From Bdellovibrionales bacterium (GTDB taxonomy: Bacteria; Bdellovibrionota; Bdellovibrionia; Bdellovibrionales; UBA1609), in assembly GCA_965205945.1 (NCBI GenBank), contig CBDBIB010000002.1:67614-131613 (forward strand): a DNA stretch of 64,000 nt, written 5' to 3'. Positions 34,559 through 50,651 of the stretch are shown piece after piece. How positions within the stretch are numbered: the first letter of the stretch is position 1; every line of letters begins with the position of its first letter. A model generated the notes under the pieces. That model was given only the letters and a program-made list of their open reading frames with translations. It did not search any database and had not been told where the DNA came from. Made by a program: the position numbers and the translations under genes.

Positions 34559-35815
34559 ATGGTTTTAAAAGAAGAGTTTGAATTTTTAAATAGTGACCTT
34601 TGGTTAAAGTACACTCAAGAAAAATACACCCCTTTAGACGACATTAAGTATCGCTTGGATAAGCTTGGTATTTTAAAGAGCAATTGGTCGGAGTTAAGAC
34701 AAAAAATACAAATATATAGAAAGATGAGTGCTGTGCCATTTTTTCTAAAGTCCATTGATAAGAGATTTTGGTATTTTCCTTCAGATTCGATTAATAAAAA
34801 AATACATCGTGTAGAAAGCTTGGGAAATAAGTTGTTCGAAAAAATAGAAAATCATAGCTCATTTAAAATAGAATTTTTAGCAAATGCAGCTGTGGAAGAG
34901 GCTGTAGCATCTGCAATTTATGAAGGTGCTAACAGTACTCGTTTAAAAGCTAAGGCTTTAATTGCTTCAGGAAATAAACCTAAGGATAAAGATGAGTGGA
35001 TGTTAGTTAATAATCACCTAGCAATGAGGTGGGTTAAAGAGAATTCAAAACTTCCTGTATCCCATGGTCTGGTCTTAAAAATACATGAAATAGTTTCAAA
35101 AAATACTCTTCAGGGAGATGATATAAGTTTTTGTGGAAAGTTTAGAAATGATGTTGTTTATGTGGGGAATCATCAGGGAACTATTCATAGAAAAATAAAG
35201 GAAGCTTTAACTGAGGTAATAGAATTAACGACAAATCACCCTCGCTTTCTACATAGCTTAATTAAGGGAATCTTGCTTCACTATTTCGTTGCATATATCC
35301 ATCCATTTTTTGATGGGAACGGTCGTACTGCAAGAACATTATTTTATTTTAAGGCTATAAAAAATGATTTAAAATTTGTTGAATTATTATCAATTTCAGC
35401 AGACTTAAAAGAGCATGGAAAAAGATACAAAAGGTCTTTTGATTTAGTGAATGAACATGAGTTGGATATAACTTTCTTTATAGATTTTTGTTTGGATTCT
35501 TTAGTTACATCTTTAGGTAAGGTTGAGAAAAAAGTTAATTACTTATTTGATATTTCATTGCTTATTGAAAAAGAAGGACTTACTTTTAACCAAGTGTCAT
35601 TGTTGCAAAGGATGGCATTAAATAAATATAGAGCAACATCAATAGAGAAATATGCTAGAGAAATTAGGAAATCTCGTGAGATAGCAAGGCGGGAATTAAA
35701 AGATTTGCTTAAAAAGGCTTATTTAAAAGAAGAAAAGAAAGGTAGAAAATTTATTTACTACGTGAATAGTAAAGAGCTAAGGGCGAGAGTTGTAGGGTTA
35801 AACTACCGCAGTTAA
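34559..35815 (+). CDS. Fic family protein (putative AMPylase) with C-terminal winged-helix region
   Basis: Canonical Fic motif HPFFDGNGRTAR. An N-terminal SAIYEG matches the (S/T)xxxE(G/N) auto-inhibitory helix motif. Confidence 0.9.
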   Translation: MVLKEEFEFLNSDLWLKYTQEKYTPLDDIKYRLDKLGILKSNWSELRQKIQIYRKMSAVPFFLKSIDKRFWYFPSDSINKKIHRVESLGNKLFEKIENHSSFKIEFLANAAVEEAVASAIYEGANSTRLKAKALIASGNKPKDKDEWMLVNNHLAMRWVKENSKLPVSHGLVLKIHEIVSKNTLQGDDISFCGKFRNDVVYVGNHQGTIHRKIKEALTEVIELTTNHPRFLHSLIKGILLHYFVAYIHPFFDGNGRTARTLFYFKAIKNDLKFVELLSISADLKEHGKRYKRSFDLVNEHELDITFFIDFCLDSLVTSLGKVEKKVNYLFDISLLIEKEGLTFNQVSLLQRMALNKYRATSIEKYAREIRKSREIARRELKDLLKKAYLKEEKKGRKFIYYVNSKELRARVVGLNYRS

Positions 35816-36716: not shown

Positions 36717-37121
36717 TTAGTAACAATTACTACTAGGAATGTGAAATTTATCGGACCAATAAACAGAATGATTAATGTAAGGAAATATATTCTTATTCAT
36801 ATGTAATTCCATTTCTCCAGAAAAGACATTTTCATGTTCAAATGAAAGTTTGAGATATCCACCAAACCTTAAATTTAAATTCCAATCAGAGTCGCCATTT
36901 CCATATGAAATAAAGGAAAGCACAGTGCTTACTTCTCCACTCTCTCCATGGTCTTGAGTTGAAAAAGATAGCTTTCTTCCTGTTTCTAATGATTGAATTT
37001 CTAATATTCCATTTGAATCTGACATTGAATACCTAAACAAAGCACTCTCACATACTGTCGTCGCGGAAGAAATTTGAGAATAGAATAAAATTAAGACAAG
37101 AAAATAAGTAGTGATTTTCAT
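36717..37121 (-). CDS. small secreted hypothetical protein
   Basis: 134 aa, signal peptide, GGAGAG SD 5 nt upstream of the start. Cys residues near both ends. Confidence 0.6.
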   Translation of the reverse strand: MKITTYFLVLILFYSQISSATTVCESALFRYSMSDSNGILEIQSLETGRKLSFSTQDHGESGEVSTVLSFISYGNGDSDWNLNLRFGGYLKLSFEHENVFSGEMELHMNKNIFPYINHSVYWSDKFHIPSSNCY

Positions 37122-37699: not shown

Positions 37700-38428
37700 T
37701 TAGAAGTAGTTATCATCGTCATTAGTATCTTCGTCGACTAAGCTACTGATATCTTCATAGAGCTCATCTTCTTGTTCATCATCTAACGTTAATTCCTCTA
37801 GGTTTCCATTATCAACTAAAAGGTCACTTATTAAAGACGTATGTTCATCTGAGTTATAATCATCACCATTTCTTTTTTTCTTTGTATTTTTAATTACAAA
37901 GGGATTTATGGGGGTTACGTAAGATTTACTTTTTAAAATTTCCTCTAAATTAGGAGTTATAGGTCTTTTACCTTCATTTTTTTTAGATTTTTGAGCAATA
38001 GGTTTTTTAGTTGTAGTTTTTATGGAATCTACAAGTTTTTGAGTTTGAGTTTTTCTGTTTGCAGCTTCTTTTTTTAATATTTTTTTAAGAAGAGTATTTT
38101 TTTTCTTAGTTATTTTTTTAGTTGTATTTTTTTTCTTAGTTATTTTTTTAGTTGTATTTTTTTTCTTAGTTATTTTTTTAGTTGCATTTTTTTTCTTAGC
38201 TGATTTTTTAGTTGCATTTTTTTTCTTAGTTATTTTTTTAGTTGTATTTTTTTTCTTAGTTATTTTTTTAGTTGCATTTTTTTTCTTAGTTATTTTTTTA
38301 GTTGTATTTTTTTTCTTAGCTGATTTTTTAGTTGTATTTTTTTTCTTAGCTATTTTTTTAGTTGTATTTTTTTTCTTAGCTATTTTTTTAGTTGTAGTTT
38401 TTTTTATAGTTTTCTTTTTTCTAGCCAT
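37700..38428 (-). CDS. Lys-rich tandem-repeat protein with acidic C-terminal tail
   Basis: Ten copies of the decapeptide TKKI[T/A/S]KKKN[T/A], then a linker and the acidic tail ..DDEQEDELYEDISSLVDEDTNDDDNYF. The ATG at 38428 lies 6 nt after GAGG and is preferred over 38440. Confidence 0.75.
   Translation of the reverse strand: MARKKKTIKKTTTKKIAKKKNTTKKIAKKKNTTKKSAKKKNTTKKITKKKNATKKITKKKNTTKKITKKKNATKKSAKKKNATKKITKKKNTTKKITKKKNTTKKITKKKNTLLKKILKKEAANRKTQTQKLVDSIKTTTKKPIAQKSKKNEGKRPITPNLEEILKSKSYVTPINPFVIKNTKKKRNGDDYNSDEHTSLISDLLVDNGNLEELTLDDEQEDELYEDISSLVDEDTNDDDNYF
38093..38392 (-). repeat. 30-bp in-frame tandem repeat, ~10 copies
   Basis: The unit ttttttcttagttatttttttagttgtatt (+ strand) is repeated with a few substitutions. 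Confidence 0.9.
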
Positions 38429-38521
38429 AATACACCTCATATATTGATAATGAAGTAGAAATGTTTAAGGAGCAAGAGTGAAAAACACTTTGCTCCAAAT
38501 TGGCCTTATTATAACGATGTA

Positions 38522-39211
38522 TTATTGGACATTTGCAAGCAGTACAGAAAGCTTTTGAGGTAGACGAAGTGAGATGAATACACCTCCACTGTGTTCATTG
38601 ATAGGAGCAAGCCAATGTATGTTTCCTATATGGCTGTTATTTTGCTCAGATCGTATAGGAACGGTTAAGTTAAGTGGAAGTTTAAGGCCTATCTCTACAA
38701 AAATTGAAAAGGAGTCAAAGGCAGCATATCCATAGGCATTAAGACCTAAAAACTTAAGTGGAAAACTAAATGATGGTGGCTCTCCACCATTTATATCCGG
38801 AAGAGGTCTTCCATTAGGCAAAGTTGTTGGGCTTTCTACAAGTTCTATATAGTCTAGTATGGGAATAGTTAGAGTTATTGTGCCTTCAATAGGATCAGTC
38901 TCAAAAGTGATGTTAGAGTTTTGGCGTATTGTACCTGATATGCCTGGAAGTGAAGCTCCTAAAGGAAAACGAATTGTAATTTCAAGGCTTTGGGTTGTAT
39001 TGTTATAGTTAATAATTTGACCATTATCTAAAAGGTTAGAGGGATCATCGAACCTTGCGCTAAACGAAATATTTTCATTTATTAAATTAGGGGTTTCACT
39101 AGAATTAAAGTCTTCACTGCGGGAGGTTGAATTTGAAAGTGAATTTAAATCATTTGTACAGCCTATAAAAAATAATAAGACTATATTTAAAATTAATTTT
39201 TTAGTTTTCAT
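38522..39211 (-). CDS. hypothetical lipoprotein
   Basis: Lipobox LLFFIGC. 229 aa. AAGGAG SD. Confidence 0.65.
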   Translation of the reverse strand: MKTKKLILNIVLLFFIGCTNDLNSLSNSTSRSEDFNSSETPNLINENISFSARFDDPSNLLDNGQIINYNNTTQSLEITIRFPLGASLPGISGTIRQNSNITFETDPIEGTITLTIPILDYIELVESPTTLPNGRPLPDINGGEPPSFSFPLKFLGLNAYGYAAFDSFSIFVEIGLKLPLNLTVPIRSEQNNSHIGNIHWLAPINEHSGGVFISLRLPQKLSVLLANVQ

Positions 39212-39442
39212 ATGTAGTTTCTCCTTATAAAATATTTCACCCAGTTAATCGAGGACTTAGACTATTGTCTTTAGGCCTTTTGTTTTATTTAAAGGGTGTT
39301 CTCAAAAAAAGACTTAAAAGTTAAAGTTATATATATATTTTTTAGACAGTTTAAAGTGGCATTGTTGGAATAATGTTTTGTTAGCCTTGACGAAGGCCTT
39401 TGACCTCTCATGTTTTATATATGGGGGTGTGCTGTGGATAAC

Positions 39443-41947
39443 ATGAATTCTAAATTCACACAGATTGTGGTAGAGAGTTTACAAGTAGCTTATGACAAAG
39501 CTTTAAAGAGTTCTTTTTCTGAAGTTAATGCAGCATGTTTATTTCTTGAATTTATGGGGTATGGAGAGGCTCTTTTTGGAAAATTTTTTATAGATCATAA
39601 AATTGAAATGAAAAGTGTTTTTGAAAAAAAAATGGAAAGTGCACCTAGGCTAAGAACCTTACCTCAAGGGCAAATTCCTTTTTCAGTATATATTCAACGA
39701 GCAATGTCTATGGCTTCGGAAAAGGCAAAAGAGATGAAGGATCAATTTATCTCTACAGAGCATTTTTTGTTCTACCTTATGTTAAATCAATCTGAATTTT
39801 CAGAGTATTTTAAGGGAATTAGTTTTACAGAAAACTTATTAAAAGAATGGATTTTAAAAAAACGAGGTGGAAAAAGAATCACCACAGATAATCCTGAAGG
39901 TACACATAATGCTCTTAATAAATATTGTAAGAATTTAAATCAAATGGCATTTGAAAATAAGTTAGACCCTGTAATAGGTAGAGATCAAGAAATACGTAGA
40001 GCCATTCAGGTTTTATTAAGGCGGACAAAGAATAACCCAGTTCTTATTGGAGAGCCCGGCGTAGGTAAAACGGCCATTGTTGAAGGTCTTGCTGGTAGAA
40101 TCGAAGATGGAGATGTTCCAGATATTTTGTTAGGTAAAAAAATTTATAGCTTAGATATGGGCCTTTTAGTTGCGGGAGCTAAGTATAAAGGTGAGTTTGA
40201 AGAAAGGCTTAAGGCTGTAGTTCAAGAAATTATTAATTCAAGGGGTGAGATTATACTGTTTATTGATGAGCTCCATACTTTGGTTGGAGCAGGGAAATCA
40301 GAAGGAGCTATGGATGCGGCTCAATTATTAAAGCCAGCACTGTCTAGGGGAGAGCTTCGTGTAGTTGGTGCCACAACCCTTGATGAGTATAAAGAGTATA
40401 TTGAAAAAGATAAGGCTTTAGAAAGAAGGTTTCAGTCGACTGTTGTGGATGAACCAACTAAAGAAGATGCACTAGAAATTTTAAGAGGATTAAAAGAAAA
40501 GTATGAACTTCATCATGGCGTAAGGATTAAAGATGAGGCTTTAAGTGCTGCTGTGGAATTGAGTTCTAGGTATATTAATCATAGATTTTTACCAGACAAA
40601 GCTATTGATTTAATTGATGAGGCAGCAAGCCAGCTAAATATTGAAATTAATTCAGTACCTGTCAAGATCGATGAACTTCAAAGAGAAATTATTAGGTTGC
40701 AGGTGAAAGTTAAGGCTTTAGAGTTTGAAGAAGGTATGGATGTGAGTTCTATAAAAAAACTTTTAGATGAAAAACTTTCTAGAAAAAGTGTACTTGTAAG
40801 GATTTGGGAAAAAGAAAGGGCTATTCTTAATAAAGACAAGGGTTTAAAGGTAGAGTATGAAAATGCAAAGCTAAAACTTCAACAGGTTGAGAAAACTGGA
40901 GATTTAGAAATTGCTGCAGAACTTAAATATGGAACCTTACCTAGGCTTGAGCAAAAAATAGCTGAAGTAGAGAACTCTTTAAAAGTAACAAGTCTTTTAA
41001 CCGAAAGCTTGGGTGCTGAAGAGGTTGCAAAGGTGGTCTCTAAATGGATAAAAGTTCCAGTTTCAAAACTTATAGATAGTGAGCGAGAAAAGCTTCTTAA
41101 GCTTGAGCAAAATTTAAAAAAAAGAGTTGTGGGTCAGGAGAAGTCCTTAAAAAGTATATCTCAAGCTGTATTAAGATCAAAGGCGGGATTTTCAGACCCT
41201 AATAAACCTTTAGGAGTGTTCTTATTCTTAGGTCCTACGGGGGTTGGAAAAACAGAAACTGTAAAGGTTTTAGCTGAACAGCTTTTTAATGATGAAGAAA
41301 AAATTGTTAGATTAGATATGAGTGAATATATGGAAAAACACTCAATATCTAAACTAATAGGTTCTCCTCCAGGGTATGTTGGTTATAAAGAGGGAGGACA
41401 GTTAACTGAAAAGATTAGAAGAGCTCCGTTTTCAGTGATTTTGTTAGATGAAATTGAAAAAGCACATCTAGATGTTTTTAATGTGCTTCTTCAAGTCTTT
41501 GATGAAGGGAGACTTACTGATGGTCAAGGAAAGATTGTGGATTTTAAGAACATCTTAGTGGTAATGACATCAAATTTAAAAAACAACAATTTAAAAACAC
41601 ATTTTAAGCCAGAGTTTTTAAATAGAATTGATGAGGTTTTAGAGTACAAAGCTTTAAACGATGAATGTTTAATAAAGATTGTAGATCTTTTAGTATTAGA
41701 GGTTCAAGATCGTATAATGAGTAGAGGAATTAAAATTTGTTTAAGTGATGGGGCTAAAAAGTTTATTTTTGAAAAAGGTTACAATCCAGAATTTGGAGCA
41801 AGACCTTTAAAAAGAACAATTGAAAAATTTGTTGTAAATCCATTGGCGTTTATGGTTCTTAATGAGGAGGTGAAAGAAGGTGCGGTCGTAAAAGTTGGTG
41901 CTTTAAAAGAAAAGCTAACTTTTAAGGTGGAATCGATTTTACAGTAA
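39443..41947 (+). CDS. clpB: ATP-dependent chaperone/disaggregase ClpB
   Basis: Two AAA+ modules ([13 protein letters not shown] and GPTGVGKTE) and a long coiled-coil middle domain. Start at MNSKFTQ (39443) is preferred over 39410. Confidence 0.95.
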
Positions 41948-42257: not shown

Positions 42258-45200
42258 TTAATAATCAGGGCTACAACGTGTAAAATTAGGTTTTTCAGCA
42301 AGAGTCCAAGAAGTTAAAGTTTGGTATGAAAAACTTCCACACTCGACAACGTTAGAAACATTCCATGAACTGATGTCTTGATCAAAAGAATCTGCATTAG
42401 AAAACATAGACCTCATATCAGTAACCTTAGAAGTGTCCCAGTTAGAGGTGTCAGGGTTAGCTAAATCTGCACTTAAAAACATAGACCTCATATCAGTAAC
42501 CTTAGAAGTGTCCCAGTTAGAGGTGTCAGGGTTAGCTAAAGCTGCACTATTAAACATAGAGCCCATATTAGTAACCTTAGAAGTGTCCCAGTTAGAGGTG
42601 TCAGGGTTAGCTAAAGCTGCACTATTAAACATAGAGCCCATATTAGTAACCTTAGAAGTGTCCCAGTTAGAGGTGTCAGGGTTAGCTAAATCTGCACTAA
42701 AAAACATCCGGCTCATACTAGTAACCTTAGAAGTGTCCCAGTTAGAGGTGTCAGGGTTAGCTAAATCTGCACTAAAAAACATCCGGCTCATATTAGTAAC
42801 ATGTCTAGTTGAGCCACCATTAACAAGAGTTAAGTTATCTGCTTTATAAAACATATGACTAAAACTTTCCCACCCTGTGTCTCCTAATTCTGTAACCTCA
42901 ATTATTTGCTCGCTATCACGAAAGTTAAGATATGGGCAGCGCCCAGTGATTTTAACTATATAAGTCCCTGAAGATGAATAAGTATGATTTTTATCTAAAT
43001 CACTTGATGAAGTAACAACTCCCGAGGTTCCATCCCCCCAATGAACCATAAAGTTATATGTATAAGAAGAACTTAAACTAAGATTTAAATTTAAATCACT
43101 ACCATAAATACTAAATTTAGCTGTAAAAGGGGTTCCTAAATTTTGTATTTCAGTGCTTAAACTAACTACATCAGACAGGTTTCCGGCTGCATCTTGTGCA
43201 ACACCAGAGGCGATTGTAATTTGAATATTTCCGGTTTCATCACTGCAGTCTGAAATCCTAATACTTGGATTAATAGTTGTTCCATTTGTTACTAAAACTG
43301 TGCAACCTGTAGTAGCTCCAGTAAGGCTGACATTGCTCTTTTCTAGGTTTATACTACTAAAGTCTTGGCTTACAGTTATGGGAAAGTCTATAGAATTTGA
43401 ACTGCTTATTATATGGCTTCCAATACTGACAATAGGGGGTTTAGTATCTTTTATTAGATTTAAAACACCTGAAGTTTTAGAATTTCCAGCAATGTTTGTG
43501 ATACTAGCAGTTAGTGAAAGTGGACCATCACTTAGGCTTGAAAAATCAATATCACCACTAAAGCTTTTATTAGAACAAGTAATAAAGCTTGTACCATGTG
43601 AAAATGTGATAAGCTCACCATCTTCAGAACATGTTCCTAAAACCCTAAAACCCCCCTCATTAATAGAATTAATGTAAGATCCACTTAAAGAGTTTGTAAT
43701 AGAAATTGTTGGATCATTGTTACTTAAAAAAGTTTTCCACACTACCCCATCGCAAAACTCCAGTTTTTTTCCTAAAGAATTATACCTTAAAGTACCCTCA
43801 GTTAAACTGTCACAAGGGGTTGTAACTGTTCCAACTTTTTTTAAAAATGTAACAGTAGATGTACTAATAGATCCTGGAGTAGAAATGCTTCCAGAGACAG
43901 AAACATCACCATTATTGTTAATAGTGATTCCTTCATCATCGCCGTCTCCACTTAAATAATTTTGGTTAAGATTTATATTTAATCGAGCCCTGCCATCTCC
44001 CATATTATCAGCACTGCTTGGTAAGTTTATAAGCCGACTTCCATCAACAGCAGGCAGTCTTAAAGAGCTATCAAGCTTAATAAGCTGATTGCTCCCTGTG
44101 CCAACATCTAATCTAGCTGTGCTAATGGTTCCTGAAGTGATCTTTTCTCCATTTAAATCTGGTATATCAGATTTTAATAAACTTAAACCCTCAACCACTC
44201 TTCCTTTAACATCAACTCTAACTTTTGGGTACGTCCCTTGGGTTACACCCGTTGGTATAAGACTAGGGTTCGGGTAGGTTCCTGTAAGATCCCCTTGAGC
44301 CTGGCTTCCTAAAAGACTTGTGTCTGTCACACATGACCATAAATAAATAGGACCTTCACTCATTTGAAGTTTTTCATTGCTTTCACAATTAGGCACTCCA
44401 CCAGCATCCATTGCGTTGCCTGCATTTTTTCCTAAAGAAGCTTTTAAATAACCGTTTAAAAAGTTTGAATGTGTTATTTTTTTAAGACCACTTTGAGAAA
44501 CATCATACATTAAAACACTGTCTAAAGAATCAGCCGTAGTTTTTTCTGTAGTTTTGTTAATGTCTACACTTAAACTTCTATTAGTTGATAAATCTCCACC
44601 TCCACTTAATCCACTGTTTAAAGCCGTTCTAATAGTTCTAGTTATTGGAGCTTTTCTAGATTCAAGTTCATTAAGTGCACCTTCTACATCTGTAGCCTGA
44701 ATGTTTCCAAATGGAGTGTAGGTCACCGTGTTTGCCGCCAGACTTGCTAAACTCCAACCTTCAGACACATCCTTACAATTTGCTCCTCTTTCATCACAAA
44801 TTTGTGTTATTCTTGCTGTTCCAGCAACGTCTAATAAAGCCTCAGGACTAGCCTTACCAACTCCAACCCTTCCATTAGCATCAATAATAATTCCCTCATT
44901 ATCACCGTCTCCACTTAAATAATTTTGGTTAAGATTTATATTTAATCGAGCTATACCATCTCCCATATTATCAGCACTGCTTGGTAAGTTTATAAGCTGA
45001 CTTCCATCAACAGCAGGCAGTCTTAAAGAGCTATCAAGCTTAACAAGCTGATTGCTCCCTGTGCCAACATCTAATCTAGCTGTGCTAATGGTTCCTGAAG
45101 TGATCTTTTCTCCATTTAAATCTGGTATATCAGATTTTAATAAACTTAAACCCTCAACCACTCTTCCTTTAACATCAACTCTAACTTTTGGGTACGTCCC

Positions 45201-48200
45201 TGGGGTTACACCCGTTGGTATAAGACTAGGGTTCGGGTAGGTTCCTGTAAGATCCCCTTGAGCCTGGCTTCCTAAAAGACTTGTGTCTTGATCAACTTCA
45301 CATGACCAGGAATAAATAGGGCCGTTACTCATTTGAAGTTTTTCATTAGTTTCACAACTAGGCACTCCACCAGCATCCATTGCGTTGCCTGCATTTTTTC
45401 CTAAAGAAGCTTTTAAATAACCGTTTAAAAAGTTTGAATGTGTTATTTTTTTAAGACCACTTTGAGAAACATCATACATTAAAACACTGTCTAAAGAATC
45501 AGCCGTAGTTTTTTCTGTAGTTTTGTTAATGTCTACACTTAAACTTCTATTAGTTGATAAATCTCCACCTCCACTTAATCCACTGTTTAAAGCCGTTGTA
45601 ATAGTTCTAGTTATTGGAGCTTTTCTAGATTCAAGTTCATTAAGTGCACCTTCTACATCTGTAGCCTGAATGTTTCCAAATGGAGTGTAGGTCACCGTGT
45701 TTGCCGCCAGACTTGCTAAACTCCAACCTTCAGACACATCCTTACAATTTGCTCCTCTTTCATCACAAATTTGTGTTATTCTTGCTGTTCCAGCAACGTC
45801 TAATAAAGCCTCAGGACTAGCCTTACCAACTCCAACCCTTCCATTAGCATCAATAATAATTCCCTCATTATCACCGTCTCCACTTAAATAATTTTGGTTA
45901 AGATTTATATTTAATCGAGCTATACCATCTCCCATATTATCAGCACTGCTTGGTAAGTTTATAAGCTGACTTCCATCAACAGCAGGCAGTCTTAAAGAGC
46001 TATCAAGCTTAACAAGCTGATTGCTCCCTGTGCCAACATCTAATCTAGCTGTGCTAATGGTTCCTGAAGTGATCTTTTCTCCATTTAAATCTGGTATATC
46101 AGATTTTAATAAACTTAAACCCTCAACCACTCTTCCTTTAACATCAACTCTAACTTTTGGGTACGTCCCTGGGGTTACACCCGTTGGTATAAGACTAGGG
46201 TTCGGGTAGGTTCCTGTAAGATCCCCTTGAGCCTGGCTTCCTAAAAGACTTGTGTTTTGATCAACTTCACATGACCAGGAATAAATAGGGCCATTACTCA
46301 TTTGAAGTTTTTCATTGCTTTCACAACTAGGCACTCCACCAGCATCCATTGCGTTGCCTCGACTTTTTCCTAAAGAGGCTTTTAAATAACCGTTTAAAAA
46401 GTTTGAATGTGTTATTTTTTTAAGACCACTTTGAGAAACATCATACATTAAAACACTGTCTAAAGAATCAGCCGTAGTTTTTTCTGTAGTTTTGTTAATG
46501 TCTACACTTAAACTTCTATCAGTTGATAAATCTCCGCCTCCACTTAATCCACTGTTTAAAGCCGTTCTAATAGTTCTAGTTATTGGAGCTTTTCTAGATT
46601 CAAGTTCATTAAGTGCACCTTCTACATCTGTAGCCTGAATGTTTCCAAATGGAGTGTAGGTCACCGTGTTTGCCGCCAGACTTGCTAAACTCCAACCTTC
46701 AGACACATCCTTACAATTTGCTCCTCTTTCATCACAAATTTGTGTTATTCTTGCTGTTCCAGCAACGTCTAATAAAGCCTCAGGACTAGCCTTACCAACT
46801 CCAACCCTTCCACTAGCATCAATAATAATTCCCTCATTATCACCGTCTCCACTTAAATAATTTTGGTTAAGATTTATATTTAATCGAGCTACGCTATCTC
46901 CCATATTATCAGCACTACTTGGTAAGTTTATAAGCCGACTTCCATCAACAGCAGGCAGTCTTAAAGAGCTATCAAGCTTAATAAGCTGATTGCTCCCTGT
47001 GCCAACATCTAATCTAGCTGTGCTAATGGTTCCTGAAGTGATCTTTTCTCCATTTAAATCTGGTATATCAGATTTTAATAAACTTAAACCCTCAACCACT
47101 CTTCCTTTAACATCAACTCTAACTTTTGGGTACGCCCCTTGGGTTACACCCGTTGGTATAAGACTAGGGTTTGGGTAGGTTCCTGTAAGATCCCCTTGAG
47201 CCTGGCTTCCTAAAAGACTTGTGTCTGTGTCTGTATCAATATCAGCCACGCAAGAATAGCTTATTATAGCACCAGGGTTTCGTTGAATCTTTTCCCCACT
47301 AGTACACACAGGAAGAGTGTCCACTTGCATGAGCTGTCCTAAACCACTTCCTATATCTGCTTCTAAACCCCTTGGCGTAATTTTTAAACCACTTCCTACT
47401 TTTACTTTTAATTTATTTATATTAAACTCTAAACCCCCAGAAGAATCTAAATCTAAATCTATGTTTCCACTGTTGTTGTATAAACCCCTACCAAGGTTGA
47501 TGCTTATTGTTGGGTTGCTACCACCTGAAGAGGTTAAAGGAGCATTGACTAAAACACTTGATGCACTACTTAAGGTGCTTAAAACTTCTAAGCTAACACC
47601 ATTCCAATACTTAAGCGCTCCAGAGTCACTATTGTACCAAGTAGCCCCAGCATTGCTCATGTTCATAGATCCTAAAAGACTAACTTCTTCTAAATTCGTA
47701 TAAGAACCTAAGGTCATGGTACTTCCTGGGTTTTGCATAATATGACTTGTGTTTAGAATCTGATTATTATTAAAGTTAAGGTCACCTAATAAAACCCCTC
47801 CTGTAAGAGGAAGTTTTGTATTGTCAGTTCCTGTGGGAACCACTGAGCTTGGTAGAATTCCACTTGTGATTTTATTTGCATGAATACCGCTTGCAAGATG
47901 ACTGTTTAAAACACCCCCTGGTGCAATTAAAATTGTGCCACTGTTTGTAATGGTTCCACCACTTAAGCCGCTTCCTGCTGTAATACTGGTTACAGTTCCA
48001 CTACCTTTACCAACAACAGTGGCTGCTGATCCATTGTAGTACATGATTTGATTATTTGTAGAGTTATACCAAATATCTCCTGCCTGAGAATTAGGTGGTG
48101 GATGAGAGCTTGAAAAACTAGGTAAAAAGCTAGCTCCACTGATGCTTAATGGGGAGTATTGATTAGAACTGCCATTAATTAAAGCCATAAGCTCCCTTTG

Positions 48201-48794
48201 ATTGGCATCATTATCAAACACGGTCTCTAAATTGCTTTGAGTAACACCACGACTTACTTGAATAAAATCATTAACAGCTTTTCCACCAAGTTTGCCGGCA
48301 TACTGAGCATAGGGCACACTGTGAATTATATGGTCATTTGTTAAAGTAAGAGGGCCGCTGCCATGATCAAAAGTTACTCTAAGCCTTCTTGTATCGTTTA
48401 AGGTTGGAGTGTATGAAGACCCAAAGGCACAACTAAGACTTTTATTGTTTAAAAAAGAATTGTCTAAAGCTTTAGATAAATTTGTTAAGCCTCCATTTCC
48501 TGTGTTTATTCCAGACCCAACGTTTAAGTTAAAAACTCCCTTTGATCCTATCATATTAAGATTAAAACTTTCTTCGTAAAGAAGACAATGATCCATGGAG
48601 GATAAAACTTGAACAAGAAAGCTGACATTATTTTCTTCTAAAGCGTCTCCATTGGGTTTTACAATTTGGCCTTGAAAAACAAAAGAACTTGGGGTGGCTA
48701 GAGAATGGGGAGTTAATAGTAAAATTGTGAAGAAAGTTAAAGCTTTCACACTTATTTCTATGAAATTTTTTAATAAGTCATATACTCTATACAT
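42258..48794 (-). CDS. giant secreted fibre/adhesin-like repeat protein (tail-fibre-like repeats, Ig-like and PKD-like domains, DUF285/BspA-type C-terminal repeats)
   Basis: 2178-aa ORF with a signal peptide. Contains 3.4 x 323-aa repeats with GVTxGTYPKVRVDVKGRVVEG (phage tail-fibre-repeat-like) and GRVGVGKASPEALLDVAG motifs, a PKD-like HWGDG...HTYSSSGTY motif, and NWDTSKVTxMxxMF repeats. Confidence 0.9.
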   Translation of the reverse strand: MYRVYDLLKNFIEISVKALTFFTILLLTPHSLATPSSFVFQGQIVKPNGDALEENNVSFLVQVLSSMDHCLLYEESFNLNMIGSKGVFNLNVGSGINTGNGGLTNLSKALDNSFLNNKSLSCAFGSSYTPTLNDTRRLRVTFDHGSGPLTLTNDHIIHSVPYAQYAGKLGGKAVNDFIQVSRGVTQSNLETVFDNDANQRELMALINGSSNQYSPLSISGASFLPSFSSSHPPPNSQAGDIWYNSTNNQIMYYNGSAATVVGKGSGTVTSITAGSGLSGGTITNSGTILIAPGGVLNSHLASGIHANKITSGILPSSVVPTGTDNTKLPLTGGVLLGDLNFNNNQILNTSHIMQNPGSTMTLGSYTNLEEVSLLGSMNMSNAGATWYNSDSGALKYWNGVSLEVLSTLSSASSVLVNAPLTSSGGSNPTISINLGRGLYNNSGNIDLDLDSSGGLEFNINKLKVKVGSGLKITPRGLEADIGSGLGQLMQVDTLPVCTSGEKIQRNPGAIISYSCVADIDTDTDTSLLGSQAQGDLTGTYPNPSLIPTGVTQGAYPKVRVDVKGRVVEGLSLLKSDIPDLNGEKITSGTISTARLDVGTGSNQLIKLDSSLRLPAVDGSRLINLPSSADNMGDSVARLNINLNQNYLSGDGDNEGIIIDASGRVGVGKASPEALLDVAGTARITQICDERGANCKDVSEGWSLASLAANTVTYTPFGNIQATDVEGALNELESRKAPITRTIRTALNSGLSGGGDLSTDRSLSVDINKTTEKTTADSLDSVLMYDVSQSGLKKITHSNFLNGYLKASLGKSRGNAMDAGGVPSCESNEKLQMSNGPIYSWSCEVDQNTSLLGSQAQGDLTGTYPNPSLIPTGVTPGTYPKVRVDVKGRVVEGLSLLKSDIPDLNGEKITSGTISTARLDVGTGSNQLVKLDSSLRLPAVDGSQLINLPSSADNMGDGIARLNINLNQNYLSGDGDNEGIIIDANGRVGVGKASPEALLDVAGTARITQICDERGANCKDVSEGWSLASLAANTVTYTPFGNIQATDVEGALNELESRKAPITRTITTALNSGLSGGGDLSTNRSLSVDINKTTEKTTADSLDSVLMYDVSQSGLKKITHSNFLNGYLKASLGKNAGNAMDAGGVPSCETNEKLQMSNGPIYSWSCEVDQDTSLLGSQAQGDLTGTYPNPSLIPTGVTPGTYPKVRVDVKGRVVEGLSLLKSDIPDLNGEKITSGTISTARLDVGTGSNQLVKLDSSLRLPAVDGSQLINLPSSADNMGDGIARLNINLNQNYLSGDGDNEGIIIDANGRVGVGKASPEALLDVAGTARITQICDERGANCKDVSEGWSLASLAANTVTYTPFGNIQATDVEGALNELESRKAPITRTIRTALNSGLSGGGDLSTNRSLSVDINKTTEKTTADSLDSVLMYDVSQSGLKKITHSNFLNGYLKASLGKNAGNAMDAGGVPNCESNEKLQMSEGPIYLWSCVTDTSLLGSQAQGDLTGTYPNPSLIPTGVTQGTYPKVRVDVKGRVVEGLSLLKSDIPDLNGEKITSGTISTARLDVGTGSNQLIKLDSSLRLPAVDGSRLINLPSSADNMGDGRARLNINLNQNYLSGDGDDEGITINNNGDVSVSGSISTPGSISTSTVTFLKKVGTVTTPCDSLTEGTLRYNSLGKKLEFCDGVVWKTFLSNNDPTISITNSLSGSYINSINEGGFRVLGTCSEDGELITFSHGTSFITCSNKSFSGDIDFSSLSDGPLSLTASITNIAGNSKTSGVLNLIKDTKPPIVSIGSHIISSSNSIDFPITVSQDFSSINLEKSNVSLTGATTGCTVLVTNGTTINPSIRISDCSDETGNIQITIASGVAQDAAGNLSDVVSLSTEIQNLGTPFTAKFSIYGSDLNLNLSLSSSYTYNFMVHWGDGTSGVVTSSSDLDKNHTYSSSGTYIVKITGRCPYLNFRDSEQIIEVTELGDTGWESFSHMFYKADNLTLVNGGSTRHVTNMSRMFFSADLANPDTSNWDTSKVTSMSRMFFSADLANPDTSNWDTSKVTNMGSMFNSAALANPDTSNWDTSKVTNMGSMFNSAALANPDTSNWDTSKVTDMRSMFLSADLANPDTSNWDTSKVTDMRSMFSNADSFDQDISSWNVSNVVECGSFSYQTLTSWTLAEKPNFTRCSPDY
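42421..42800 (-). repeat. 75-bp (25-aa) DUF285-type tandem repeats, 5 units
   Basis: Units start at 42421, 42496, 42571, 42646 and 42721. Each encodes MF.SA.LANPDTSNWDTSKVT.M. Confidence 0.9.
43925..47219 (-). repeat. 969-bp (323-aa) near-identical tandem repeat, ~3.4 copies
   Basis: The SLLGSQAQGDLTG codon block recurs, ending at 47219, 46250, 45281 and 44318 (spacings 969, 969 and 963 bp). The shadow ORFs on the + strand are identical. Confidence 0.95.
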
Positions 48795-48884: not shown

Positions 48885-48927
48885 TGTGCTTTTACAAAAT
48901 ATGCCGATAAGGAGGATTATGTTACTA
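48885..48927. repeat. left 43-bp inverted repeat (IR-L)
   Basis: TGTGCTTTTACAAAATATGCCGATAAGGAGGATTATGTTACTA. Its reverse complement recurs at 49384-49426 (41/43 matches; the inner 27 bp are perfect). Confidence 0.95.
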
Positions 48928-49383
48928 CGTCTATTTTAAAATTATATTTAAGTTTAAAAGTATTTAATTATAAAAGTTTAGACTTTATTTTTTTAAAATT
49001 ATTATTTTCAATAAAATTTTTATCATTAAAAATAAGGACTGCTTTAGAATTTACTTTAAAAATATTTAATATTTAGCGCTCTTTTTTTAAAGCTTAGATT
49101 TAAATATCTTTATTTATCATAGCTGTTATTTTAACCAACATCTAAGTTTAAAAGTTATTAAGATACAGCATATGTATTATATAAAATTAAATAAATATTT
49201 AAAGCGATATTCTTTAAGGTTTTTTTAATATTTATTTGTATAGAGATATTATTTAAACAAGAAAATCTTGTTAATTAAACGTAACTATTTTGCAACATTT
49301 TTATGTTACAAAGAAATTTACACTTAAGCACCATAGTTAAAATCAGCAGGTCAAATCAAAAATAATGTGGTTTTAAGCAGAAA

Positions 49384-49426
49384 TAGTAACATAATCCTCC
49401 TTATCGGCATGTTTTATAAAAGCACA
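49384..49426. repeat. right 43-bp inverted repeat (IR-R)
   Basis: TAGTAACATAATCCTCCTTATCGGCATGTTTTATAAAAGCACA is the reverse complement of IR-L with 2 mismatches. Confidence 0.95.
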
Positions 49427-49811: not shown

Positions 49812-50651
49812 ATGAAGTTATTAAAGAAGCATAAGTGTTTTAATGGTGTAACAGAGTTTTTTGAACACGATTCTATTTTTACAAAAATCAAAATGAAATT
49901 TGCAGTGATTAGGTCTGAAAATTTAAAAGATATTAAAGGAGGTCTTATTTGGCTATCAGGGCTAACTTGTACTGAGGAGAACTTTGTAATTAAAGCCGGA
50001 GCTCAAAGAGTAGCTACTCAACTGGGTTTAGTTATAATTTGTCCAGATACTTCGCCAAGAGGTTTAAGCCTTTTAGGAGAGCATGAATCTTGTTATTTTG
50101 GCTCTGGGGCAGGCTGTTATGTGGATTCTTTAACTCAAGATTATAAACACCATTACAATATGTATTCATATGTGAATGATGAAATCTATGGGATTGTAAA
50201 CAAAGAATATAAGCTTAATGGGAATATAAGTATCTTTGGCCATTCAATGGGTGGGCATGGTGCTTTAGTTATTGGTTTAAGAAATACTAATAAATATAAA
50301 TCCATCTCAGCTTTTGCTCCTATTGTAAATTTAACAAAAGTAAATTGGGGTAAAAAAGCTTTTAAAAAATATTTAGGATCTGATGAAAATTTATGGAATA
50401 AATATGATGCTTGTGAATTAATTAAGAGTGGTAAATTTCATAAAAATAAAATTTTAATTGATCAGGGTACGGATGATGAGTCTTTAAATAAGAGCTTAAT
50501 GATTCCTAATTTTGAAAAAGCATGTGAATCATCACCTCAAGAACTTAAAGTAAGGTATCATAAGGGGTTTGACCACTCATATTACTTTGTTTCTACGTTT
50601 ATAAAAGACCATTTAAGGTTTCACCAAAGAAGTTTATTAAAACAAGTTTAA
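49812..50651 (+). CDS. S-formylglutathione hydrolase / esterase D family
   Basis: LSGLTCTEENF, PDTSPRG and GHSMGGHGAL (nucleophile elbow) motifs. 279 aa. Confidence 0.85.
   Translation: MKLLKKHKCFNGVTEFFEHDSIFTKIKMKFAVIRSENLKDIKGGLIWLSGLTCTEENFVIKAGAQRVATQLGLVIICPDTSPRGLSLLGEHESCYFGSGAGCYVDSLTQDYKHHYNMYSYVNDEIYGIVNKEYKLNGNISIFGHSMGGHGALVIGLRNTNKYKSISAFAPIVNLTKVNWGKKAFKKYLGSDENLWNKYDACELIKSGKFHKNKILIDQGTDDESLNKSLMIPNFEKACESSPQELKVRYHKGFDHSYYFVSTFIKDHLRFHQRSLLKQV

Follow-up and report, generated by a model that had tools for sequence, protein, structure and literature searches.

The stretch of DNA examined here (the window, 64,000 nucleotides (nt) of a Bdellovibrionales bacterium, GenBank assembly GCA_965205945.1, contig CBDBIB010000002.1, positions 67,614 to 131,613) carries on its minus strand a gene for a large modular fibre protein of 2178 amino acids (aa). 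An initial annotation, made from the letters alone, had placed an open reading frame (ORF) of this length at 42258-48794; it is indeed the sole long reading frame there, lies on the minus strand and starts with ATG, and all motifs quoted for it are present in the multiplicities given. Judged by its sequence, the protein is a fibre of the mosaic adhesive trimer (MAT) family, of the class without a Peptidase_S74 (S74) tip. It consists of a signal peptide, the MAT_N domain, a long stalk, a cysteine-bracketed joint and a C-terminal tip, which is made up of two immunoglobulin-like (Ig-like) domains, a PKD-like domain and a DUF285/PARCEL solenoid (Table 1). A tip of this Ig-Ig-PKD-PARCEL type is not yet described for the MAT family.

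Table 1. Features of the fibre gene and its surroundings (positions in the window)
Feature	Position	Strand	Residues (aa)	Remarks
Fibre ORF	42258-48794	minus	2178 in total	ATG start
N-terminal signal peptide	48696..48794	minus	1-33	predicted cleavage between SLA and TP, by sequence inspection
MAT_N domain	48252..48695	minus	34-181	beta-rich, conserved, defines the MAT family; Cys70 and Cys122
Proximal stalk	47316..48251	minus	182-493	Gly/Ser/Thr-rich, two WYN...Y(Y/W)NG hairpin motifs
Stalk repeat array	43890..47315	minus	494-1635	
Stalk units			526-848, 849-1171, 1172-1492; 1493-1635	three full (323/323/321 aa); partial fourth
Swap-joint module	43725..43889	minus	1636-1690	C1661-x6-EGTLRYN-x6-EFC1681DGVVW
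Two Ig-like beta-sandwich domains	43131..43724	minus	1691-1888	Cys pairs 1722/1740 and 1831/1850
PKD-like domain	42900..43130	minus	1889-1965	WGDG motif
DUF285/PARCEL solenoid head	42261..42899	minus	1966-2178	six 25-aa repeats and a C-terminal cap with Cys2152 and Cys2174
Inverted-repeat-bounded segment	48885..49426	none		542 bp; arms 48885-48940 and 49371-49426
ClpB	39410-41947	plus		flanks the fibre gene
Esterase	49812-50651	plus		flanks the fibre gene; beyond it an IscS-like aminotransferase, MnmA and a MiaB-like radical-SAM enzyme

Domain architecture and family membership

According to Caulton et al. (2024, PMC10769870), a MAT protein combines a signal peptide, a ~130-aa domain, conserved and rich in beta structure, that follows it directly, a trimeric fibre and a tip that varies, the latter being Peptidase_S74 or another adhesive fold. 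Those family features that can be examined by sequence, namely the signal peptide, the MAT_N domain and a variable, exchangeable C-terminal tip, are all present in the window protein. The signal peptide had been proposed before, and inspection agrees with it: the sequence reads ...KALTFFTILLLTPHSLA ahead of the predicted SLA/TP cleavage site and TPSS after it, has the hydrophobic core ALTFFTILLL and aligns with the signal peptides of homologues. The NCBIfam model NF053851 ('Bdello_MAT_N, mosaic adhesive trimer family chimeric fiber protein') matches aa 24-181 with 145.4 bits against a cut-off of 60 (E 1.2e-42), which takes in positions 4-161 of the 162 positions of the profile. A B. bacteriovorus 'tail fiber domain-containing protein' ending in Peptidase_S74 shares 39% identity (E 1e-28) with MAT_N at its N-terminus. 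The domain is presumed to anchor the fibre to the predator's own surface. Neither a PF13884 match nor an SDxxxK motif is present in the window protein; an S74 tip is thereby ruled out, and the protein belongs to the non-S74 class of MATs.

A HMMER scan with the MAT_N domain over 1.84 billion representative proteins yielded 2061 clusters at E<=1e-3 (951 at E<=1e-10), and in all of the best 150 of the 2061 the domain lies at the N-terminus. Named full-length homologues belong almost all to Bdellovibrio, Bdellovibrionales (metagenome-assembled genomes, MAGs) or Peredibacter, and are listed as 'tail fiber domain-containing' or 'beta strand repeat-containing' proteins. The RpoB protein of the window has counterparts in a 'Bdellovibrionales bacterium' MAG with 92% identity, in a Bdellovibrionaceae MAG with 80% and in Bdellovibrio sp. 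HCB337 with 76%. Hence, the source organism is an uncultured, low-GC member of the Bdellovibrionales. The earlier comparison with chimeric fibres of the Bdellovibrio type is supported by the NF053851 match of 145 bits, the 39% identity to the B. bacteriovorus fibre and the RpoB placement.

The protein contains 10% glycine, 13% serine and 9% threonine, in line with the Gly/Ser/Thr-rich segments that had been noted in it. Its proximal stalk has weak PHROG matches to virion and tail fibre proteins and is, like the repeat array that follows, homologous to stalk segments of many MAT_N proteins (for the proximal part by local phmmer). The array amounts to 3.4 units: three full units that are pairwise 95-97.5% identical, and a partial fourth of ~140 aa; at the DNA level the period is 969 bp with 95-97% identity. 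The unit length of 323 aa and the motifs were thus recognised correctly beforehand, the number of units being three full and one partial rather than 'several' equal ones. In each unit there are two hairpins, the tail-fibre-like GVTxGTYPKVRVDVKGRVVEG one and one of the form C-x17-C, and two loops, VGVGKASPEALL and a small C-x6-C. The protein has four copies of YPKVRVDVKGRVVEG, at aa 555, 878, 1201 and 1522, and three of GRVGVGKASPEALLDVAG, at aa 662, 985 and 1308. Of the 25 cysteines of the protein, 24 lie in short-range pairs; MAT_N has one such pair and each stalk unit has two.

The initial annotation had described these units as resembling phage tail fibres and had named Phage_fiber_2 as a candidate family. 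Pfam returns no match to Phage_fiber_2, whether the whole protein is searched (E<=1) or a single stalk unit by itself (E<=10); since Pfam finds nothing in the stalk even at E<=10, this assignment is unsupported and was rejected. The likeness as such is borne out by other searches: the GVTxGTYPKVRVDVKGRVVEG segment matches PHROG family phrog_7389 ('tail fiber protein', E 3.9e-10), and tblastn finds the stalk motif, of the form GDLTGTYPNP..GVTxGTYxKVxVDxKGRVxxG..L..DIPxL...KITSG, with 46-57% identity over ~50-60 aa in annotated tail fibres, among them those of phiCTX (orf20, 'similar to H gene of P2', i.e. of the P2 gpH type), Aeribacillus phage AP45 and Puniceispirillum phage HMO-2011. However, this likeness is confined to the one motif and spans just 15-22% of a stalk unit, and the window protein differs from these phage fibres by the absence of a phage context, by its Sec signal and by its cellular anchor domain. 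If a rise per residue like that of Bd2133 (142 Å for 370 residues; Caulton et al. 2024, PMC10769870) is applied by extrapolation, a stalk length of some tens of nanometres would result.

Stalk and tip are connected by a module that we call the swap joint, as it is the last element common to differently tipped and tipless relatives. The Cys-bracketed EGTLRYN...EFCDGVVW module reported previously is found here, with C1661 and C1681 as the bracketing residues. It matches the C-terminus of the tail fibre family phrog_30742 (E 4.4e-4), and in the AlphaFold model its pLDDT (predicted local distance difference test) is below 35.

For the tip, an AlphaFold2 model of aa 1630-2178 was built on 58 homologues. 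The PKD-like domain and the solenoid (aa ~1889-2139) are predicted with pLDDT >90, and the two Ig-like domains are modelled as all-beta with pLDDT ~77 and ~57. Of the Ig-like and PKD-like domains proposed at the outset, the folds are supported by this model and by its Foldseek matches, whereas Pfam places both below threshold: the Ig-like region reaches 20 bits with Big_13, and the PKD-like domain 17.9 bits with PKD (PF00801) against a cut-off of 23.5, with a PDB match to 4xed at E 0.7. The PKD-like segment of the fibre is shared by 62 of the best 120 DUF285 relatives, and homologues of the segment carry precomputed PF00801 or PF18911 matches. Against the PDB, Foldseek matches the tip only in its Ig-like part and with low TM-scores, to the tandem-Ig adhesins SiiE, InvD and MpIBP (Marinomonas ice-binding adhesin) at E ~1e-4 to 1e-3; no solved DUF285 structure surfaced in this search with the multi-domain tip.

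The DUF285/BspA-type head that the initial annotation had proposed is supported: PF03382 scores 172.8 bits against a cut-off of 25 (E 2.7e-51), and TIGR02167 (PARCEL repeat) 63 bits against 30, in 6 stretches. The six NWDTSKVTxM..MF repeats claimed for it resolve into five exact NWDTS repeats and one degenerate leading repeat. Within the structure database BFVD, the solenoid matches BspA-family leucine-rich repeat (LRR) surface proteins, including some of Aeromonas phage D3 and Klebsiella phage N1M2, with a root mean square deviation of 1.3-3 Å over 180-215 residues and E down to 7e-15. The DNA of these C-terminal repeats forms a 75-bp tandem array of 5.5 copies with 94% match. Each 75-bp unit further contains one imperfect 18-nt palindrome CAGGGTTAGCTAAAGCTG (78%), which at most faintly recalls the dyad symmetry that PARCEL DNA is described to have.

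Exchange of tips, repeat variation and a shared cassette

Comparison of the window protein with its relatives places the change of tip at the joint. The sister protein P0002 is 71% identical over N-domain, stalk and joint (here EGTLRY...EFC(D/N)G) and then continues into a different tip, Lcl_C (DUF1566); its cluster has 1.5 stalk units compared to 3.4 in the window fibre. The joint also precedes an Lcl_C tip in P0077, is followed by another, different C-terminal sequence in P0015, and is found in ten further MAT_N representatives. P0070, which belongs to the same 90% cluster as the window protein, has no tip and ends five residues past the joint. In P0003, N-domain and stalk are 52% identical and the C-terminus is S74. 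We read the joint as the putative end of the oligomeric stalk and as the point at which tips are recombined.

Seven proteins make up the 90% cluster of the window protein, among them the identical P0074. Four stalk motifs are kept in every one of them, and the number of PARCEL repeats is 5 (window protein), 10, 12, 14, 14, 31 and 0. Over 113 repeats, ten PARCEL positions are invariant (W2, D3, T4, S5, V7, M10, M13, F14, D23 and S25), and positions 9, 11, 12, 15 and 16 vary with 1.7-2.2 bits of entropy; position 9 lies in the single short strand that each repeat forms in the AlphaFold2 model. PARCELs were described by Roske et al. as variable-number repeats of 25 residues with variable hydrophilic positions, which occur on lipoproteins and are shuffled within genomes. 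The variation in repeat number and at single positions in the window lineage fits this description.

Several members of the 90% cluster are recorded on contigs of equal length, which suggests that they are paralogues. For the sister Lcl_C cluster, dispersed paralogy is proven, as P0002, P0084 and P0081 occupy three distinct positions on a single ENA contig of 560 kb. Remnants of insertion sequences (IS) flank two of these three MAT paralogues of the sister genome (L001, 6442-7610; L002, 7911-8030); they comprise an IS3-type transposase (rve and HTH_Tnp_1 domains) and a DDE_Tnp_1_3 fragment, and would fit a recombination-driven spread of MAT genes. At a third locus (L003, 1-3494 and 4001-7750), an Lcl_C-tipped MAT paralogue lies directly downstream of secretin, GspE-, GspF- and GspG-like genes. 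This set, of type II secretion or type IV pilus-like kind, may hint at the route of MATs to the surface.

More than 1000 DUF285 proteins are related to the tip, many of them from Bacteroidota and with a PKD domain in front, and none of the best 120 DUF285 relatives contains MAT_N, stalk or joint. Conversely, MAT_N and tip are combined only in the 90% cluster of the window protein among 69 first-round matches, and Ig, PKD and PARCEL segments are all missing from 143 further MAT_N representatives, so that the distribution of the tip was judged over about 210 MAT_N proteins. The tips given for strain HD100 and for the organisms of Table S3 by Caulton et al. (2024, PMC10769870) are S74, TNF-like, C-type lectin, beta-sandwich, SPRY, FGE, collagen-like and invasin, and a full-text literature search found no paper that links Bdellovibrio MATs to DUF285/PARCEL.

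The same tip domains are found on another type of protein in sister genomes. P0085 (909 aa) and P0087 (585 aa) begin with the lipoprotein signal MSKVIQCLFIIGLVGC and carry the cassette as Ig-PKD-PARCEL and as PKD-PARCEL, respectively, with 81-84% identity to the window protein. Their contigs are recorded with lengths equal to those of contigs on which members of the 90% cluster lie. Homology between the window protein and these lipoproteins starts cleanly at PTI(S/D)ITN, just past the joint. By sequence comparison, the Ig-PKD-PARCEL arm is therefore to be regarded as a portable cassette. Since it is also used on a lipoprotein anchor, it probably folds and works as a single chain, in which case the fibre would end in three separate arms. 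In P0086, on a 526-kb sister contig, PKD-PARCEL is preceded by the first Ig-like domain in four tandem copies, and the poly-G N-terminus (MWVKVRGGGGGGGG) is implausible; the gene looks truncated or mis-assembled.

Proposed working and competing explanations

Based on this dataset, we hypothesize that the gene encodes a non-S74 MAT fibre of Bdellovibrio-like bacteria, the arms of which recognise an epitope on the surface of prey cells, and we consider this account as a whole probable, with some reserve. The protein would be exported by means of its cleaved N-terminal signal peptide, and MAT_N would hold the fibre on the cell's own surface. Some ~1500 residues of stalk (the proximal segment and the 3.4 units, which within this explanation are recently amplified), with local disulfides as staples, would join those of two further chains to a long fibre that terminates at the Cys-bracketed EGTLRYN...EFCDGxxW joint. 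Past the joint, each chain would continue as an independently folding arm of two Ig-like domains, the PKD-like domain and the six-repeat DUF285/PARCEL solenoid of BspA-like LRR type, and the variable positions of the solenoid would form the ligand-binding face for the prey epitope. Diversity of the repertoire would arise from swapping of tips at the joint, from changes of repeat number (5 to 31) and from substitutions at five positions of the repeat. Architecture, family membership by sequence, sharing of the cassette and the pattern of variation are observed directly. From the MAT family we infer that the chains trimerise, that the fibre is displayed at the surface and that it serves to recognise prey, and the arms are taken to be independent of one another.

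Several points weigh against this account. We know of no ligand of a DUF285/PARCEL domain in any organism, and the prey epitope is therefore an extrapolation from the MAT family; moreover, the source organism is known from assemblies only. Repeat counts taken from assemblies of near-identical repeats can be wrong. A PDB sequence search with the whole protein gave nothing to the crystallised MAT fragments and only a marginal PKD match. The monomer AlphaFold model of one stalk unit is poor (pLDDT 58, predicted TM-score 0.20) and confident only in four small beta-hairpins, which would be compatible with an obligate oligomeric fibre, for which such a result is expected, but gives no evidence for a trimer. 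The capping-loop consensus V-G-G/N-pi-x-x-P-x-x-x-L on the edges of beta-helices is common in MATs, although not a criterion (Caulton et al. 2024, PMC10769870), and a regular-expression search found no exact instance of it in the fibre protein; VGVGKASPEALL, present three times, once per full stalk unit, is a relative of this loop that is longer by one residue. Finally, deletion of a single MAT gene in HD100 rarely gives a phenotype (Caulton et al. 2024, PMC10769870).

The strongest competitor is a general surface adhesin on the MAT scaffold, directed at substrates, biofilm or a eukaryotic or other host, in a Bdellovibrionales lineage other than an obligate predator, or with a function that has nothing to do with prey. 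The organism is uncultured, surface proteins of the DUF285/BspA type occur in very diverse non-predators and even in viruses and algae, Foldseek sets the arm beside the classical adhesins SiiE, InvD and the ice-binding adhesin, and Table S3 of Caulton et al. (PMC10769870) includes MAT-like proteins in non-predators. We nevertheless regard such an adhesin as rather unlikely, because the named MAT_N matches are almost all from Bdellovibrio and like organisms, and because several paralogues, dispersed and differing in their tips, are retained in the lineage, which is the pattern proposed for broad prey recognition.

An artefact of assembly, by which a tipless MAT gene was joined to that of a PARCEL lipoprotein, or by which repeats were collapsed or expanded, would also have to be considered in view of stalk repeats of 969 bp at 95-97% identity and head repeats of 75 bp at 94%, of the occurrence of both separate parts (P0070 and P0085) in one sister genome, and of the poly-G N-terminus of P0086. 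Yet an identical protein of 2178 aa is on record (P0074), five further full-length members from at least three contigs have the same junction of joint and Ig-like domain, the reading frame is uninterrupted over 6.5 kb in a genome of 33% GC, and the 150 residues specific to the lipoproteins are absent from the window protein, with the clean start of homology at PTI(S/D)ITN. An artefact therefore appears very improbable to us. The resemblance of the ~50-aa stalk motif and of the joint to phage tail fibres in PHROG and tblastn searches, along with the DUF285 heads that are present in phage proteins as well, might finally point to a tail fibre gene that a prophage or tailocin has left behind in the chromosome. 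We give this almost no credence: the protein carries a Sec signal peptide and MAT_N, which is a cellular domain, the neighbours of the gene are ClpB, the esterase, IscS-like, MnmA and MiaB-like genes, and phage structural or integrase genes are absent from the 19 larger ORFs of the window that were scanned. A single-protein query with a stalk unit found no close relative among IMG/VR contigs, and phage matches extend over the mentioned 15-22% of one unit only. This reading was rejected on gene context.

With the non-S74 MATs of B. bacteriovorus HD100 (Bd2439, Bd2734, Bd2740, Bd2133 and Bd1334; PMC10769870), the window fibre shares the signal peptide, MAT_N, a long stalk of tail-fibre-like kind and a variable tip that is no protease and that in the window fibre, too, would fold independently; both HD100 and the window lineage have multiple dispersed paralogues with swapped tips. 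It differs from them by the Ig-Ig-PKD-DUF285/PARCEL arm, which is not among the described tips, by its length of 2178 aa compared to about 1000, and by a stalk of three near-identical 323-aa units in which the exact capping-loop consensus is absent. The MAT tips described so far are compact trimers, whereas that of the window fibre, found on lipoproteins as well, probably needs no trimerisation. With the PARCEL/DUF285 surface proteins of Roske et al., the tip has in common the 25-residue repeat with conserved hydrophobic and variable hydrophilic positions, a repeat number that varies between close relatives, a presence on lipoproteins and signs that repeats are shuffled both within a genome and between genomes, and the pairing of PKD with DUF285 is also common in its Bacteroidota relatives; the difference is that here the repeats are mounted on a MAT fibre. 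BspA-named LRR surface proteins are known within the Bdellovibrionota from Peredibacter, where, according to a 2026 study (PMC13147790), they are encoded by stand-alone genes said to be absent from other Bdellovibrionota. These genes are separate and not fused to MAT fibres, and are likened to the head of the window protein by name only.

As the MAT family is defined by its mosaic tips and already has an NCBIfam model, the window protein adds to a known family and is not a new system. Its contribution lies in the swap joint, in a cassette that lipoproteins carry as well, in the series of repeat numbers and in the position-specific variation. MAT fibres are the current best candidates for the means by which Bdellovibrio-like predators recognise many prey. 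The published set of MAT tips is small and mostly derived from one strain, and the window locus adds the Ig-Ig-PKD-PARCEL type to it. Variation in repeat number and at specific positions is of the kind expected of a binding surface under diversification. Residues 1691-2178, together with the natural allelic series, would be usable for asking what the domains of the very widespread DUF285/PARCEL family bind.

A bolder extension would see the PARCEL-tipped MATs as a rapidly diversifying repertoire of prey receptors with a trimeric stalk and three free LRR-like arms, tuned by repeat slippage (5 to 31 repeats), by exchange of cassettes with lipoproteins and, for this copy, by an on/off switch that the inverted repeat described below would form around the upstream promoter region. 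We consider it improbable in this full form. Phase and antigenic variation of mycoplasma surface lipoproteins is a parallel, and if the extension were true, it would be phase and antigenic variation applied to predation.

The upstream inverted repeat and neighbouring genes

Upstream of the fibre gene lies a 1-kb AT-rich spacer that contains an inverted repeat. An adjoining element of this kind had been reported with the initial annotation, and it is indeed present, its nearest arm ending 91 nt before the ATG. The arms are 56 nt long, 88% complementary and bracket 430 bp; each of them, reading inward, has AAGGAGGA followed by ATG. Promoter-like hexamers inside the inverted repeat point to the fibre gene, their number being not above chance. 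The arm is single-copy in the window, and no such repeat is found upstream of the three sister paralogues (L001-L003). As an exact 19- or 22-mer the arm has no match in GTDB representative genomes, JGI metagenomes or L001-L003, a search by which diverged copies would be missed; a multi-copy miniature inverted-repeat transposable element (MITE) is therefore unsupported. No recombinase was found among 19 of the larger ORFs of the window, including all that flank the fibre gene. Possible explanations of the inverted repeat are an invertible promoter, a solitary MITE or a structured leader.

The start codon of the fibre gene is uncertain by 15 codons. The homologues P0002 and P0205 begin with M(R/K)ALTLFTVLL...SLA followed by VPSSFVFQGQ, and this start of the closest homologues aligns with a GTG at codon 16 (48747-48749) of the window gene, so that the true start lies possibly 15 codons 3' of the annotated ATG; a start at this GTG would give a canonical 18-aa signal peptide. 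No AGGAGG-like Shine-Dalgarno sequence was seen before the ATG, in agreement with the initial annotation.

The fibre gene has a GC content of 37.6% compared to 33.1% for the window and stands alone on the minus strand, with the neighbouring housekeeping genes on the plus strand. Rfam matches in the window are restricted to tRNAs. Two small ORFs (36717-37121 and 38522-39211) have no family match. A 246-aa ORF at 37700-38440 (minus strand) matches the Chlamydia-type histone H1-like nucleoprotein HC2 (PF07382) with 40.2 bits against a cut-off of 40, which may merely reflect its Lys/Ala-rich composition. A Fic/DOC-domain protein of 418 aa is encoded at 34559-35815 on the plus strand, between a tRNA and these two small ORFs.

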